NCBI GenBank assembly: GCA_030635145.1
Contig: DAOVZK010000005.1
Location: 16,694 to 80,693, forward strand
Reading direction: 5' to 3'
From: Planctomycetota bacterium
GTDB taxonomy: Bacteria; Planctomycetota; Phycisphaerae; SM23-33
Length of the DNA: 64,000 bases
Below, piece by piece: positions 1 to 38,004 of this stretch. The position numbers and the translations under genes were made by a program. The notes below the pieces were generated by a model. It searched no databases, was not told the origin of the DNA, and saw nothing but the letters and a program-made list of their open reading frames with translations. Positions within the stretch are counted from its first letter, which is position 1, and each line of letters opens with the position of its first letter.

Positions 1-1152
1 TCGGTGTTGGAGGGCATGGTTATTGGTGCCTACGCTATCGGGGCCGACCGCGGTTATATTTACGTGCGGATGGAGTATCCGCTGGCGATTGAAAATCTTC
101 GAATCGCTATTGATCAGGCAACTCAGCGCGGGGTGTTGGGCGAGAACATACTCGGTAGCGATTTTAGCTTTAACGTGAAAATTTCGCGCGGGGCAGGGGC
201 GTTTGTCTGCGGCGAATCGACCGCACTGATGGCTTCTATCGAAGGGCTTACCGGCGAACCGCGTGCCAAGCATATCCACACCAGCGAAAAGGGCCTGTTC
301 GGTAAACCCACGAACCTCAACAACGTCGAAACCTGGGCTAACGTTCCGGTAATTATCGACAAGGGCGTCGAGTGGTACACGAGCATCGGCACGGAAAATT
401 CCAAAGGCACGAAGGTGTTTTCGCTTGTGGGTGCCATCAACAATACCGGGTTAGTCGAAGTGCCGATGGGCATTACGCTGCGGGAGATTATTTACGATAT
501 CGGCGGTGGGATTCCCAAGGGTCGTCCGTTTAAGGCTGTCCAAACCGGCGGGCCTTCCGGTGGATGCCTACCAGAAAACATGCTCGATTTACCGGTGGAT
601 TTCGATCAACTTACCGAGGTCGGGTCGATGATGGGCTCGGGCGGAATGATTGTGATGAACGACCACACATGCATGGTCGAAATCGCGCGGTACTTTACCG
701 ACTTTCTGCGGCGCGAGTCGTGCGGAAAATGCACACCCTGCCGCGAGGGCGTGCTGCGGATGTACGAAATTCTCGACAGCATCACAGCTGGGCGCGGAAA
801 GATGGAAGATATCGATCTGCTGGAGGAGATTTGCGGATACGTGCGGGACAACAGCATCTGTGGGTTAGGCAAGACCGCGGCGAATCCGACGCTCAGCACG
901 CTGCGATTTTTCCGCGATGAATACATCGCACACGTAAAAGACCACAAATGCCCCGCCGGGGTCTGCCAAGCACTGACAACATTCATCATCGACGAAAAAA
1001 CCTGCAAAGCATGCGGTGCCTGCCTCAAAGCATGCCCCGTTGAGGCAATTAGCGGCGGTGCGAAGAAAAAACCCGCGAAAATCGACCAGGACAAATGCAC
1101 CACCTGTGGCGCCTGCCGCGAGGCCTGCCTCTTTGATGCAATTATGACATAG
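1..1152 (+). CDS. NuoF-like NAD(P)H-binding flavoprotein subunit with a C-terminal 2x[4Fe-4S] ferredoxin domain (5' partial; probable electron-input module of a CODH, hydrogenase or formate dehydrogenase)
   Basis: The ORF runs off the window start. It carries NuoF/HoxF-type motifs (Gx[19 protein letters not shown]) and two CxxCxxCxxxCP ferredoxin motifs at the C-terminus. Confidence 0.8.
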
Positions 1153-32543: not shown

Positions 32544-33152
32544 CTATTGGGGCGTACCTAATTCCGAAGCAGCAGATGTGTAGACTATCATTGTAAGTTC
32601 ACAATCTTTTAATGCTCGGTGAGCCCCTTTCGTTGATAGACCACCAGTTTTGGCTAAATCACCCAGTTTGTAACTTTTTAATCCCGGCCAAGCACGCCTT
32701 GCCATTTTTAAAGCACAAGAGCTTGGGTTATTAATTGTAAGGCCATAATTTTTTGCTGCTGTTTTGAGAAAGCTCATATCAAATTTAGCGTTATATGCAA
32801 CCAAACGTAGATCACCAAAAAATTCCATGAATTCCTTTATTACTGATTCGAGATTTTCACCATCTCTTTCAACCATTTCTTGGGATATGCCAGTAATCTG
32901 TGTGATCTCATTAGGAATTTTTTTACTTGGTTTTATTAGAGCATGAAGGGAGGTGTGGTTATCTGAATCGCGATTTACTTTTACAGCCCCGATCTCAATA
33001 ATTTCATGTTGTGTAGGATCAAGTCCTGTTGTCTCCAAATCAAGAACTATAAATTGCTTTGGGAGCATAGAGAAATTTGCTTTTCTTTTTTTAAATCGAA
33101 AGAAAAGATAAATTCCAGCTACTACCAAGACTAAAATAATAACCCATTCCAT
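32544..33152 (-). CDS. Membrane-anchored DnaQ-like DEDDh 3'-5' exonuclease
   Basis: N-terminal TM helix (WVIILVLVVAGIYLFF); Exo I VLDLETTGL, Exo II AYNAKFDMSFL, Exo III HRALKDCE. Markedly AT-rich gene. Confidence 0.75.
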   Translation of the reverse strand: MEWVIILVLVVAGIYLFFRFKKRKANFSMLPKQFIVLDLETTGLDPTQHEIIEIGAVKVNRDSDNHTSLHALIKPSKKIPNEITQITGISQEMVERDGENLESVIKEFMEFFGDLRLVAYNAKFDMSFLKTAAKNYGLTINNPSSCALKMARRAWPGLKSYKLGDLAKTGGLSTKGAHRALKDCELTMIVYTSAASELGTPQ

Positions 33153-33376
33153 AGTTTCTCCTTCGATCTAACGACAATTCAAGGTTGGTTAATTGATTTT
33201 ACTTTTTCTCCCGTTGGTTTGAGGTCACAAATTGCAACAATGGTATTGTCCTTTTTTACAGCGGGGAAAGCACGTGTTAAATGTGGTAAAATCCCGGCCG
33301 AAAGAAACGACAGGGGCATGGTTAACGCAAATCCGACGGCCATGAACGACCCACCCGCAATCTATGGGGCCTACGT

Positions 33377-34819
33377 TTACTTGCATTCAAGGATCTCTTT
33401 TCCGGAGACTGCCCTATAGAATGTTCTAATAACCGGATGTTCCAGATAAGCGGGTTTTTCGTCGCCCTTGAACTTGAACTCTAAGAGCGATTCGATGTTT
33501 TTATTCGTAAGCGTCTTGAGGAAGCCGTTCCACTGGGCAGCCTCGTCTACAGTCAATCCCTTCGACCAGGCGATATAAGTCATCAAGTCTTTACCGTTTA
33601 GAAAAACCTTCCCGAACTGTTTTTTCTGGATATTTTCGTTGGGCTCAACCCACAGGGCGTAGCAAATGGCGGGGGCTTGTAATTCGTTATTATGAACAGG
33701 AGCATTCCAGGCGATGGTTTTTTTATCTTCATACCATTTCCCGTTGGTGTACAGAGGTTCGGAGGGAACAGCGAGTGATGCGGTCAACTTGTCGGATACG
33801 CCAATGCCGAATCCTAAAGCTGATTGCATGATGTTACCTGTATACTCATTAATAATATCTTTGTCAGGGTTGGCAGAAAAATCTAATTCTTCTTTTTTCT
33901 TACGAAGATATTCTTTTTTGAATTCCGAAAATCCTTCAGTGGATTTTACCGCTTTTTGGAATGCCTCCTCCAAATTTTTTTCAGGATTTTTGATGCAATC
34001 GATCAGGGCAACGGTGAGCGGACCATCTTTTTTGAGGCCGACCTTATTTACCAGAGATTCTCGCAGCACCTCCGAGTAGAGTTTTTCCTTGGACGAGTTT
34101 GAAACAAAGGTATCGTATAGCAGAGGCGGAACCTTTTGGATTGAAACGTAGTTATGCCCAACAAGAAACTGTATCAGGCGGGCGCTTGCGGTGTTTTCCG
34201 GTTTGGGCACAATATCGCGAGCTAATTTCAAATTCTCAGACGATTCAGACACGGGTATGCCCGGTTTTGCTTCGGCGAGTTGATTTTGCGTCGTCCACAT
34301 AAGCAGCAGAAGGGTTTTGCAATCCTTTCGCAGCTGGGTATTGACAAACTTGTCGAGCTTTTCAAACTCGTCCATATCGGCGAATTTTTGCTTGAGAGTC
34401 AGCTGTAAAATATCGACGAGTTTGTCGCCCGCCTCCAGTCGCGTTTTGGCTTGCTCGTACAGATCGTCACTGCCGCCGAAATTTTCAACGTATCCCGTAA
34501 CTGATCCATACTGGCAGGTGTCGTAGGCAACACTACCGTTACCGCCGATATCATTAGGGGTTTTATCTGTGAACTGTCCCTCGAATGTTACTTCACCACC
34601 AACTTTTTTGAAGGCTTTGCGGTTGTAAAGTTTTGCGATGCGATTCGCAATTTCGAGACGTTCATTTTTCATTTTTACAAATTTAACCGTTAGTTTCCGG
34701 TTCAGCACATTGCCCTTGGTGGACATTGTAAGCGTGTATTCTTTGTGCGGACAGCCAGCCAGCAAAAAGACAGACACTGAAAGCAGCAGGGCAATAGCGA
34801 TGTGATGTTTTTTCATCAT
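33377..34819 (-). CDS. Large lipoprotein of unknown function (480 aa), AT-rich
   Basis: Lipobox LLAGC. No recognised domain. Co-located with the exonuclease in an AT-rich islet. Confidence 0.55.
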   Translation of the reverse strand: MMKKHHIAIALLLSVSVFLLAGCPHKEYTLTMSTKGNVLNRKLTVKFVKMKNERLEIANRIAKLYNRKAFKKVGGEVTFEGQFTDKTPNDIGGNGSVAYDTCQYGSVTGYVENFGGSDDLYEQAKTRLEAGDKLVDILQLTLKQKFADMDEFEKLDKFVNTQLRKDCKTLLLLMWTTQNQLAEAKPGIPVSESSENLKLARDIVPKPENTASARLIQFLVGHNYVSIQKVPPLLYDTFVSNSSKEKLYSEVLRESLVNKVGLKKDGPLTVALIDCIKNPEKNLEEAFQKAVKSTEGFSEFKKEYLRKKKEELDFSANPDKDIINEYTGNIMQSALGFGIGVSDKLTASLAVPSEPLYTNGKWYEDKKTIAWNAPVHNNELQAPAICYALWVEPNENIQKKQFGKVFLNGKDLMTYIAWSKGLTVDEAAQWNGFLKTLTNKNIESLLEFKFKGDEKPAYLEHPVIRTFYRAVSGKEILECK

Positions 34820-35077
34820 ATTTCTCCCGTTGGTTTGAGTTTGTAAAACTTAACGTATTATCTGTTTTGGCAGTAACGAATGCACTCAAAAAATGCAGGA
34901 TTGCCGCCGCCGTTTTTTGTGCCATCATAACGGCGATAAAAGCCGTAAATGTTGCTGGTTTACTGCTGGGAAATTTTGCGAAATGTGTTAAAATCCCAGC
35001 GATGAGATCGGCCGTAGTATAAATGGAGTTTTGAAATTGCCTCCAGGCCGATCAGGGGTTAAAACAGGGAGATAAAT

Positions 35078-35482
35078 ATGATTACCCAAGAATTCAGTAT
35101 CAGCACAACCAGTCACGACGCAATGGTCGACATCACTACGGAAGTCGCACGCATGGTAGCCGACAGCGGAATACGGGACGGAACCGTTACCGTTTATACC
35201 CCGCATACGACTTCGGCGATCACGATCAACGAAAACGCCGACCCGGACGTTATTCACGACGTTTTGATGCAGCTGGACAAGATGGTCCCGTGGCATCAGC
35301 CGTTCTACGATCACTGCGAAGACAACAGTGCCGCTCACGTCAAAAGCTCGATGATCGGGGCAAGCGAAACGATCCCTCTCAGTGCCGGGGAAATGACGCT
35401 CGGTGTGTGGCAGGGGATTTACTTCTGCGAATTCGACGGGCCACGCGGCAGAAGATTCATCGTCAACATAACCGGGCGATAG
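35078..35482 (+). CDS. YjbQ/UPF0047-family protein (secondary thiamine-phosphate synthase-like)
   Basis: VTVYTPHTTSAITINEN ... SAAHVKSS ... GVWQGIYFCEFDGPR. Confidence 0.85.
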   Translation: MITQEFSISTTSHDAMVDITTEVARMVADSGIRDGTVTVYTPHTTSAITINENADPDVIHDVLMQLDKMVPWHQPFYDHCEDNSAAHVKSSMIGASETIPLSAGEMTLGVWQGIYFCEFDGPRGRRFIVNITGR

Positions 35483-35808
35483 TCGTAGCACGACAGGCGA
35501 TAGTGGCGGTGGCAAAATAATCGCCGCGGTCGCACCGCTAGCACGACAGGCCGCGAGCCGCGGTTGCATTTAATAATAGCCTCCACCGCTGGTGAGCCTC
35601 CACCTCCAGTGCTACTGGTGCCTATCCCCTAATCCCTATTTCTGCTGGCGGCTCTTTGGTTCCATGAGTCGCATGTCAATTTGCGGCTGGATGGAGTTGG
35701 CAGCAACCAGGCCGGTGAAACCTATCACGCGAACAAGATCGGCCGTGCCAACTATCTTTGCATTAGCGGGAGATGTTACATAGTCAAAGAAACGTTTGAC
35801 GCAGGTCT

Positions 35809-36135
35809 TTGCTTCCTCATCAGGCTGAATGTTGGCGATGTACGGGTGTCCGGACGCAGTGTTCTGTTTTTAATGACGAAGGTGCGATTGCTGCGTATCG
35901 GGCGTTCCGCGACTTGTCGCTGAGTATTCCAGGTGATGTTGCGATTGTCGGCTGTAATGGTATAGAGGATACGGAATATCTGGATGTTCCTATCAGCACG
36001 CTAATGATGCCCTCGGATGAATTAAGCAGTGTGGCGTGGGACTTTATGGAACGGCGGATGTGGAACTCAGACGCTCCCCGCCAGGAAATGATATTAAAAC
36101 CCAAATTGGTTATTCGTGAATCTTCACAGGCATAG
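35809..36135 (+). pseudogene. C-terminal fragment of a LacI-family regulator (ligand-binding domain tail only)
   Basis: PGDVAIVGCNGIEDTEYLDVPISTL matches the LacI C-terminal consensus (PeDisvvGfDd...PpLTTv). No in-frame upstream continuation exists. Confidence 0.4.
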
Positions 36136-36286
36136 TATTTCGCATAGAAATGAAAGGCGATTGAAGGGTTACGACAAAAGAGGAGCCTGGAGATAGCTTA
36201 GGAGCAGACGGGAAAATCCGCTACCACAATTGCAATAGCCCACTCTGAAGATCAACGCGTTACAACAGCAGGTTCGCCGTAACGCT

Positions 36287-36898
36287 CTAGACTTGCCGGA
36301 TCACACCGATAACGACGCCCTGTACGGTAACATCGTCTACATAAATGGGATCGTATTTTTCATTCGCCGGTTGGAGGCGCACTCGCCCATCTTCGCGATA
36401 CATTTTCTTAAGCGTAGCATCCCCATCCGGGAGCAACGCGACGACAGTCTCGCCATTTCTCGCGGTATTACGCTGCTGGCAGATCACAAGATCGCCATTG
36501 CAGATATGATCCTCGACCATACTATCGCCGCTGACCTCCAGCACAAACGTATTACCATTGGCGGGGAACATATCTCGCAGGTCGATAGTCTCCGGCCGCT
36601 CAACCGCCTCGATTGGATTTCCCGCGGCAATCCGCCCAGCCAGGGGCAGCTTATTTTCCATGTCCTGCTGATCGGGAAGCTCTACGTCATCAGACAGCTG
36701 TAAAGAGCGAGCGCTGTGTTTGGCTCCCCGCGACAGCAGACCTTTTTTTTCTAGTGCTCCGACGTGCTCGAACACGGTTACCTTTGTTAGACCCAAGTGA
36801 TCCCCAATCTCCTGCATCGTCGGGGAATAACCGTGCTGCATCCGATAATTCTGTATCAGCTGTAAGATTTCGAGTTGTCGCGGTGTTACAGGTTGCAT
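36287..36898 (-). CDS. lexA: LexA repressor
   Basis: N-terminal wHTH (LTPRQLEIL ... GYSPT.QEIG) and a C-terminal S24 peptidase with the AG cleavage site and Ser/Lys dyad (GDSM ... KKM). The start at 36898 is preceded by a GGAGAA RBS. Confidence 0.9.
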   Translation of the reverse strand: MQPVTPRQLEILQLIQNYRMQHGYSPTMQEIGDHLGLTKVTVFEHVGALEKKGLLSRGAKHSARSLQLSDDVELPDQQDMENKLPLAGRIAAGNPIEAVERPETIDLRDMFPANGNTFVLEVSGDSMVEDHICNGDLVICQQRNTARNGETVVALLPDGDATLKKMYREDGRVRLQPANEKYDPIYVDDVTVQGVVIGVIRQV

Positions 36899-37412
36899 TT
36901 TCGTTCTCCTGTTGGTTTGCACTCGGATGCGTCTTTTTATCCAAGCTATCCAAGCTATCCAAAATGGGCATATCGCTCTCGACACGCTGCGAAGTTCGCT
37001 TTATCATAGCGACCTGTTCAACCGGGCACGACGCCTCGGCCAAAACGCAGGAACTGCTATGCTGCAGCGGTAGTGTCGCCAGTTTCGCGTCGGCAGCTGC
37101 AATCTGCGAAGCCACCAACTGCTCGTCGCTCATAGCAGCGGGACTAATGCGCCGCAACACATCCAGCACCGACTTGACAACGCCCTTGACCTGCGAAGAC
37201 TCTTCCTTCTTCCGCCAAGTCAAACCAGCAGCACTTGTGCTGACTAAATCCGGCTCCAGGCCGAGATCCGCCGCCAGCCGTGCAAAGCCTTTGCGTTTTT
37301 GCTCTTCTAAATCAACGTCATGTGGAATCACATCGCCCGACTTCGGCCAGGCCTTCCTGTAATCTCCACCCGAACCAAACTGGCATAATGGAGGGTTATT
37401 CATGGTATCCAT
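36899..37412 (-). CDS. Hypothetical ORF upstream of lexA (3' end uncertain; the reading frame runs about 200 nt into lexA)
   Basis: The track ORF 36690..37412 has no stop before lexA. The tandem TGGATAGCT repeats at 36941-36960 fall inside it (coding DSLDSLD). May be non-coding. Confidence 0.25.
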
Positions 37413-38004
37413 ACCTTTCGTTGCCTGCTACATCTTTGCCCGTCGAACACAAAACACCCACCGCCTTTGCGGTGGCACGAGAACGCTCATAAACTCTGCC
37501 ATCGCCGCAAACAGCCCTAATTCCATTCGCTGTCGCATCAAAAGCAATTTTTACAAGTTCCCGCAGTTTTTGTATCCGTCGGCCGTGGCAATTCCGATAA
37601 CCCAGATTCGACCAGTGGTATATCCTTAAAAGGTCACATATTTGGTTTTTGTTCGTACTCATTATGTCCTAACATCGTCCAAACGTCAAGCCCGACGTTA
37701 GGGATTTGTTAAAAAATTTTGACTTTTTTTTTAACGGTCTTTGGAGCATACATAGAGACAGACACCCGCAGAGCAGTGCGGCCCCGCCCTTCTACATTCT
37801 CCATTCCTCGATTCCCATACCCAAGATATTGAATAGCTGGGTTAGTGCAGACACTACCCATAGACAATTATCGGTAAGGGCTGGTTTGGAACTCCACTAA
37901 AAGTCGCAAAAAAATTCCCCGAAAATCCGCGCACAAAAAAGCGGCCTGATTTTCTCAGACCGCCTTTAATTGCATGTTCGTGCAGAGCGCACGCGCCGCC
38001 GGGG

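Follow-up and report, generated by a model that had tools for sequence, protein, structure and literature searches.

A repeated motif upstream of lexA and two neighbouring genes of a Phycisphaerae contig: probably an extended ribosome-binding site and a duplicated leader

We analyzed a 64,000-nucleotide stretch of DNA from a Planctomycetota bacterium (Phycisphaerae, SM23-33; GenBank assembly GCA_030635145.1, contig DAOVZK010000005.1, positions 16,694 to 80,693), hereafter the window, in which one 16-nucleotide (nt) motif, CAAACCAACRGGAGAA, lies upstream of lexA, of a lipoprotein gene and of an exonuclease gene. Coordinates refer to the plus strand of the window; the sense strand of the motif is the minus strand. 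The motif is probably an ordinary extended ribosome-binding site (RBS), multiplied by one duplication of a promoter-leader, and the copy before lexA is probably an independent look-alike and not an SOS operator. On the mRNA it would act as a translation-initiation region, in which an extended Shine–Dalgarno (SD) sequence (R-GGAGAA) follows an unstructured C/A-rich tract, CAAACCAAC. We propose that a bidirectional promoter-leader of about 95 nt between a UPF0047 gene and the lipoprotein gene was duplicated, with its RBS end retained under constraint, and that the duplicate (R1) lost the start codon and the coding sequence that it formerly served. A low-GC exonuclease cassette with its own short leader and SD would then have arrived by horizontal transfer downstream of R1, leaving copy 1 of the motif as a relic RBS in the presumed 5′ untranslated region (UTR) of the exonuclease gene. 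The likeness of the lexA copy (copy 3) to the lipoprotein RBS would reflect convergence on the preferred leader template of the genome (AAAC…RGGAGAA) and not shared regulation.

Ribosome-binding context of the motif

The motif is present three times in the window, at 33206-33221 (copy 1), 34822-34837 (copy 2) and 36904-36919 (copy 3), which confirms the positions given in a previous sequence-only reading of this DNA. Read on the plus strand, copies 1 and 2 are TTCTCCCGTTGGTTTG and copy 3 is TTCTCCTGTTGGTTTG; the degenerate form TTCTCCYGTTGGTTTG covers all three. Copies 1 and 2 are identical over the 19-mer tttctcccgttggtttgag (33205-33223 and 34821-34839). The next-best matches in the window differ from the 16-mer at four positions, so that the full motif is either present or absent. 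All three copies have the same orientation, and each contains, on the sense strand, a purine-rich GGAG or GGGAG core that is complementary to the anti-SD. At lexA the arrangement is GGAGAA-CGAAA-ATG (ATG at 36898-36896), with 7 nt between GGAG and the start codon. At the lipoprotein gene it is GGAGAA-AT-ATG-ATG, where GGAG stands 4 nt before the first ATG and 7 nt before the second. Both distances fall within the spacing of an SD (about 4-9 nt). Copy 1 is not followed by an ATG, GTG or TTG within 20 nt, and the exonuclease ATG at 33152 lies 52 nt from its 3′ end and 70 nt from its 5′ end. The motif had been described as preceding three start codons. This description holds for lexA and the lipoprotein gene, but the exonuclease gene has an SD of its own and copy 1 has no start codon. 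Except for AAC-C-AAC, the 16-mer contains no inverted or direct half-sites, and it has no dyad symmetry. A fixed orientation and SD spacing at the functional copies are how an RNA-level signal would behave.

The leaders of the window show a related preference. In 10 of 34 leaders with an SD, those of groES, groEL and UPF0047 among them, AAAC is found no more than 12 nt upstream of the SD core, compared with a background of 6% (p = 2e-5). With the lexA and lipoprotein leaders left out, the count is 8 of 32 (p = 5e-4). Because the longest common substring does not discriminate between leaders, in which SD-based 9-10-mers are common, we scored leader pairs by their ungapped 16-nt match. The lexA and lipoprotein leaders agree at 15/16 positions and rank first among 861 pairs. 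Unrelated pairs reach 14/16 and 13/16 in a continuous tail, and a crude extrapolation of this tail expects about 0.14 pairs at the level of lexA and the lipoprotein gene. The claim that three such copies would not arise by chance therefore survives comparison with whole-window shuffles (0.04 matches expected), but against an RBS-aware background the third copy is only mildly unusual. Since RBS-aware pairs produce a tail up to 14/16, the shuffle statistic overstates this copy. More generally, short perfect repeats in front of neighbouring genes may be RBSs that were shaped by common selection or copied along with a leader, and their significance is greatly inflated when it is judged against shuffles of whole-window composition.

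The same sequence is used elsewhere. The pattern CAAACCAACRGGAGAA-N2-7-ATG occurs at at least 120 metagenome loci on contigs of 31-69% GC. Among the matches listed, the proteins that follow are unrelated (substrate-binding proteins, small phage-like proteins, enzymes), and no close relative of the present organism appears. The ATG opens an open reading frame (ORF) of at least 80 amino acids (aa) in 60 of the 100 distinct matches listed, compared with 19% for random ATGs on the same contigs (p = 1e-18). A scan of a genome collection for the 16-mer gave, among the matches listed, scattered single occurrences in unrelated phyla, which have no bearing on this genome.

The leaders fold no better than shuffled sequences (z-scores -1.2 to +2.2). 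The tract CAAACCAAC contains neither G nor U and is mostly unpaired in both minimum-free-energy and centroid folds, as a single-stranded C/A tract should be. An unstructured C/A-rich tract before an SD is of the kind known to help loading of the 30S subunit. In enterobacteria, initiation is enhanced by ACA motifs and by CA-rich single-stranded tracts that precede the SD (PMC3879156; PMC5934652). The present motif resembles these cases in its GGAG core 4-7 nt from the ATG, in the G-poor unpaired C/A tract directly before the SD on the sense strand, and in its recurrence before real ORFs in many taxa. It differs in that the published cases are enterobacterial, that copies 1 and 2 read AACG and not ACA beside the SD, and that copy 1 lacks a start codon. 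The suggestion of a translational enhancer or RBS context is thus supported by the anatomy, the metagenome recurrence, the AAAC-SD tendency and the lack of predicted structure; the C/A tract itself would be the enhancing part. A common ribosome-binding context, which the sequence-only reading had named as the outcome that would speak against a special role, is in spirit what the window and the metagenome matches listed contain.

A duplicated promoter-leader and the exonuclease cassette

The likeness of copies 1 and 2 had been described as one of 19 nt. The 19-mer is indeed identical, but it forms the end of a homologous segment of about 95 nt. The relevant comparison is with a related Phycisphaerae contig (L130), recovered from the same sample as a contig with a 91%-identical LexA. 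It encodes a lipoprotein that is 66-67% identical and shares the divergent UPF0047-lipoprotein arrangement. The intergenic region of L130 is 110 nt long and ends in …ACCTCAAACCAACGGGAGAAATACG-ATG, with the 19-mer in the same position before the lipoprotein gene. Window positions 33205-33298 (R1) are about 84% identical to this region over 94 nt. The actual lipoprotein leader of the window (R2) reaches only about 63%, and the match is broken by an insertion of about 85 nt that parts the -10-like box A from the proximal leader. An independent repeat search found a duplicate of box A, TGGTAAAAT, at 33279-33298, 90% identical to 34981-35000. Read on the plus strand, the duplicated block shows an extended -10-like TGnTAAAAT directed at UPF0047. 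This orphan copy of box A is not followed by a UPF0047 gene; it is oriented antisense to the lipoprotein gene, into whose 3′ end it points.

The 19-mer is conserved at 19/19 positions in R1, R2 and L130, while the neighbouring 60 alignment columns are 55-78% identical. At a per-site identity of 55-65%, 19/19 would arise by chance with a probability of roughly 1e-5 to 3e-4, which marks the RBS end as the part of this paralogous leader that is under constraint. In R1 the approximately 20 nt after the SD resemble decayed first codons of the lipoprotein gene from which the ATG has been deleted. Homology that extends far past the short repeat, and an orthologous counterpart in L130, are what a segmental duplication would leave. 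These alignments support the view that copies 1 and 2 owe their identity to common descent and form the 3′ ends, where conservation is highest, of a promoter-leader of about 95 nt that was duplicated. The earlier suggestion of a duplication footprint is borne out for copies 1 and 2 in this form, but not as direct repeats that bracket a mobile unit. The RBS of UPF0047, AAAACAGGGAGATAAATATGAT, is 77% like that of the lipoprotein gene. The lipoprotein family itself comprises 4 proteins among 5.8e9 (5.8 billion), and other annotations start this protein at the second ATG (479-aa product P0121). One assembly annotates as a gene a 54-aa ORF at 33179-33343, in which copy 1 lies; we rejected this ORF as spurious, since it has no Pfam match and overlaps the duplicated promoter segment.

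The exonuclease gene next to R1 appears to have a different history. Its product matches Pfam PF00929 (E = 1e-35), and the family has 1651 homologues at E ≤ 1e-10, with named matches in Betaproteobacteria, Terriglobia and Phycisphaerae. Two homologues of 79-81% identity (L252, L254) keep 36-38% GC whatever the GC content of their contigs. Their neighbours differ, with a gene for an Mrr-type nuclease (Mrr_cat) in L252 and CsgG in L254. In L252 (2427-4056) the exonuclease gene stands two genes downstream of the Mrr_cat restriction-type nuclease gene. This setting and the constant low GC suggest a mobile, possibly defence-related gene. The exonuclease leaders of L252 and L254 are short (…ttgaattgt…aggaaacaatt-ATG) and lack the motif. 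Two pieces of them, TTGAATTGT and CGTTAG, reappear at about 33160-33190 of the window, just before the SD, which places the junction between relic leader and cassette near 33185-33190. The motif in front of the exonuclease gene is, judged from these alignments, a by-product of leader duplication and cassette arrival.

The locus thus offers a tidy case of the re-use of a promoter-leader before a horizontally acquired gene. As in promoter capture, where a leader is re-used before a newly acquired gene, a regulatory segment of about 95 nt is present twice in one orientation, and one copy stands before a foreign gene of low GC content with an RBS of its own. The likeness has a limit in that we infer both the promoter activity of R1 and the order of duplication, replacement and insertion (for example, tandem paralogues followed by replacement) from the sequence. 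The features of the locus are compiled in Table 1.

Table 1. Features of the motif-bearing region, listed by their position in the window
Feature	Coordinates	Strand	Description
Exonuclease gene	32544..33152	-	DEDDh RNase_T/DnaQ-like 3′-5′ exonuclease, anchored in the membrane by an N-terminal transmembrane helix; 37% GC; horizontally mobile
Exonuclease leader and SD	33153..33190	-	…TTGAATTGTCGTTAGATCGAAGGAGAAACT-ATG; SD also given as GAAGGAGAAACTATG, GAAGGAGAAACT-ATG
Copy 1	33205..33223	-	Relic RBS without start codon in the presumed exonuclease 5′ UTR; 3′ end of the duplicated leader
R1	33205..33298	-	94-nt duplicated copy of the UPF0047/lipoprotein bidirectional promoter-leader, between the lipoprotein stop codon and the exonuclease gene
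Lipoprotein gene	33377..34819	-	479/480 aa; very small family without Pfam domain
R2	34820..34895	-	Proximal lipoprotein leader, paralogous to R1 and diverged, with about 55-63% identity beyond the 19-mer
Copy 2	34821..34839	-	Working lipoprotein RBS, CTCAAACCAACGGGAGAAA then T-ATG-ATG; same 19-mer at the same place in L130
Box A	34981..35000	+	Extended -10-like TGTTAAAAT; presumed UPF0047 promoter by consensus
UPF0047/YjbQ gene	35078..35482	+	Divergent from the lipoprotein gene; Pfam match; same arrangement in L130
lexA	36287..36898	-	203 aa; PF01726 and PF00717; closest named relatives are Phycisphaerae proteins from metagenome-assembled genomes
Upstream ORF	36690..37412	-	Conserved, unannotated; contains copy 3 and overlaps lexA by about 209 nt
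Copy 3	36904..36924	-	lexA RBS, GAGTG-CAAACCAACAGGAGAA then CGAAA-ATG; inside the upstream ORF
ORF-lexA operon promoter	37650..37689	-	TTGACG-17-CATAAT; conserved spacer; dyad TGTTAG-N13-CGAACA flanking the -10

A metagenome contig (L185, about 300-720, minus strand) contains two copies of the 16-mer 378 nt apart. Each lies in a repeated leader of about 45 nt before one of two consecutive 76-aa ORFs, an independent case of leader duplication carrying the same RBS.

The lexA copy and the possibility of a shared RNA-level signal

Copy 3 is part of a 21-mer, GAGTGCAAACCAACAGGAGAA, which is kept in relatives at 89-91% LexA identity and is perfect in three of them (L121-L123). Two other contigs (L127, L128) have a few substitutions in the 21-mer, and those of L128 that fall inside the motif are synonymous in the frame of the ORF that overlaps the 5′ end of lexA. 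Looser versions, gaaaccgaaacGGGAGAA and caactacAGGAGAA, occur in the leaders of more distant lexA relatives. The overlapping ORF translates the motif as S-A-N-Q-Q-E-N, has no stop codon before lexA and runs about 70 codons into lexA in another frame. It is kept in all relatives examined (L121, L124, L126 and L127 among them), including those at 69-71% LexA identity, with the pattern NPPLCQFGPGGDYR…VLAEAS.P. The ORF product (about 240 aa) has no Pfam match and belongs to a small family of 19 representative clusters, most of about 235-250 aa. Its conserved start is probably the ATG at 37403. Gene callers skipped this ORF in the relative loci that we examined. We also weighed a programmed frameshift that would fuse it to LexA, but dismissed this idea because neither a slippery site nor a pause codon is present and because lexA is provided with an SD and an ATG of its own. 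A tandem repeat specific to the window, GATAGCTTG × about 2.7 (36940-36966, minus strand), amounts to an in-frame 15-nt insertion in the ORF (…DSLDSLDKK…).

Several points weigh against an ordinary RBS. The full 16-mer stands before only 3 of about 42-55 genes of the window, which is sharper than a graded RBS preference predicts, and all three copies fall inside 3.7 kb. The lexA 21-mer is perfect in a relative of about 89% identity though its flanks show substitutions and a 15-nt indel; dual coding plus the SD constraint can explain this conservation. Furthermore, the anti-SD CCUCC is the canonical form, assumed here with the 3′ end of the 16S rRNA lying outside the window, the motif count for this organism covers the 64-kb window, and the published enhancer activity of C/A tracts comes from enterobacteria and not from Planctomycetota (PMC3879156; PMC5934652).

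Some of these points would also fit a shared post-transcriptional operator, in which a G/U-rich small RNA of the GcvB type, or an RNA-binding protein that like CsrA recognizes GGA, targets the C/A tract and the SD, and thereby co-regulates lexA, the lipoprotein gene and, via the relic site, the exonuclease gene. For such an operator speak the sharpness of the 16-mer relative to the general leader template and the conservation in relatives of the 19-mer and the lexA 21-mer, whose flanks are not conserved. In addition, the exonuclease leader holds two GGA sites 53 nt apart, and GcvB targets exactly such C/A-rich enhancers in enterobacteria (PMC3879156). The likeness to GcvB-type target sites, a C/A-rich sequence directly before the SD and common to more than one mRNA, is genuine, but no partner RNA was found: the 64-kb window contains no complementary sequence elsewhere, and Rfam identified no RNA in the region. 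At the gathering threshold Rfam returned only tRNAs, and at a permissive threshold two chance matches far below threshold (E 0.17 and 0.51) inside the exonuclease gene. The sharing between copies 1 and 2 stems from duplication, the match between lexA and the lipoprotein gene lies within the tail of the RBS background, and the occurrence of the same 16-mer before unrelated genes in many unrelated taxa is explained by ordinary RBS selection. The exonuclease site, moreover, owes its presence only to the leader duplication and is absent from the relatives of that gene. On balance we regard a shared operator of this type as unlikely. The more specific proposal, that CAAACCAAC-RGGAGAA is a dedicated post-transcriptional operator of this Phycisphaerae lineage read by a G/U-rich small RNA or an RNA-binding protein, strikes us as quite unlikely. 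If true, this operator would couple translation of LexA to that of a lineage-specific envelope lipoprotein, and the captured exonuclease would join via the relic site.

Copy 3 could also share descent with copy 2, if gene conversion or illegitimate recombination between neighbouring leaders had given the lexA and lipoprotein RBSs a common stretch. The two genes are 2 kb apart in the window, and their 15/16 identity is the best of all leader pairs, at a level where the crude tail estimate expects well under one. Nevertheless, the likeness ends at the boundaries of the 16-mer, and both versions, which differ by A/G, are already fixed in relatives (L127 and L130, from one sample; L121). The lexA copy is also constrained by the overlapping ORF. 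Finally, the relatives carry a convergent epimerase gene after lexA in place of the present islet, so that the adjacency of the two genes may not be ancestral. Common descent of copy 3 thus appears improbable, and convergence on the leader template is the explanation that we retain for it.

The lexA operon promoter, SOS control and mobile elements

The sequence-only reading had also proposed that the motif is a LexA operator (SOS box), by which LexA would subject lexA and the genes for the lipoprotein and the exonuclease to SOS control. One copy does stand directly upstream of lexA, and the plus strand reads GTTC-N7-GGTT, which, as remarked at the time, is loosely like the alphaproteobacterial direct repeat. 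Apart from the location near lexA, the motif shares nothing with known LexA operators. It has neither a dyad nor tandem half-sites that would fit a dimer, it is locked to one strand and to a fixed distance from start codons, and at lexA it forms an RBS inside a conserved ORF, about 750 nt downstream of the conserved operon promoter (TTGACG-17-CATAAT). The only LexA box described for the Planctomycetes–Verrucomicrobia–Chlamydiae group is TGTTC-N4-GAACA of Verrucomicrobia, which the 16-mer does not match, and we found no LexA motif described for Planctomycetota (PMC4951493). The Verrucomicrobia box is not enriched in the window (16 matches, 29.6 expected), and none of its matches lies at the leaders in question. 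The exonuclease relatives lack the motif. SOS control through this motif is accordingly very improbable. Within the window, no recA, uvrA or imuA was identified beside the motif copies.

As far as sequence can tell, the promoter dyad at 37650-37689 is the stronger candidate for the clade's actual LexA operator. The -35 element and spacer, TTGACGTTyGkACGATGTTAGG, are kept together with a variable -10 in the window, L121, L124 and L126, that is, down to about 70% LexA identity. The arms of TGTTAG-N13-CGAACA resemble the Verrucomicrobia LexA half-site (PMC4951493). The promoter block and dyad occur once in the window, and a window search revealed no counterpart near the lipoprotein or exonuclease leaders. 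This dyad, about 750 nt upstream of the motif, is the place to seek SOS regulation of lexA in Phycisphaerae; a second pointer is the conserved unannotated ORF, which is probably co-transcribed with lexA.

Between the operon promoter and this ORF lies a 5′ leader of about 190-290 nt (window 37404-37655, minus strand). Its short invariant blocks are CGAACA…, CTGGGTTATCGGA and GAAAGGTAyGGA..CCATGA; a terminator-like hairpin (37458-37475) is present in the leaders of the window and of L121. A consensus fold of four sequences revealed no conserved secondary structure or covariation in this leader, and Rfam gave no match to it. Upstream of the promoter, a non-coding block at about 37790-37900 (minus strand; …CCGATAATT.TCTATGG.TAGTG…GCTATTCAATATCTTGGG..TGGGAATCGAGGAA.GGAGAAT) is strongly conserved with L121 and partly recognizable in L124 and L126. 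This block may encode a small RNA or have a regulatory role.

It is hardly credible that the lipoprotein gene is a mobile cassette with the identical 19-mers as its att-like cores or target-site duplications. The 19-mers are perfect direct repeats 1616 nt apart that bracket one gene in a low-GC region, but the homology runs about 95 nt past the 19-mer, with a graded divergence that is typical where regulatory DNA has been duplicated but not at a crossover core. Pfam detected no recombinase or transposase among the neighbouring ORFs, and the L130 lipoprotein gene occupies the same UPF0047-linked position with a single leader copy.

Two minor features lie between the UPF0047 gene and lexA. Downstream of UPF0047, a 17-nt tandem repeat, AGCCTCCACCGCTGGTG / AGCCTCCACCTCCAGTG, occupies non-coding positions 35578-35611. 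An ORF fragment at 35809-36135 (plus strand), whose match to a LacI-type periplasmic-binding-like domain is confined to the C-terminal part of that domain (PF13377, profile positions 82-167), is probably a pseudogene remnant in a rearranged UPF0047-lexA stretch.

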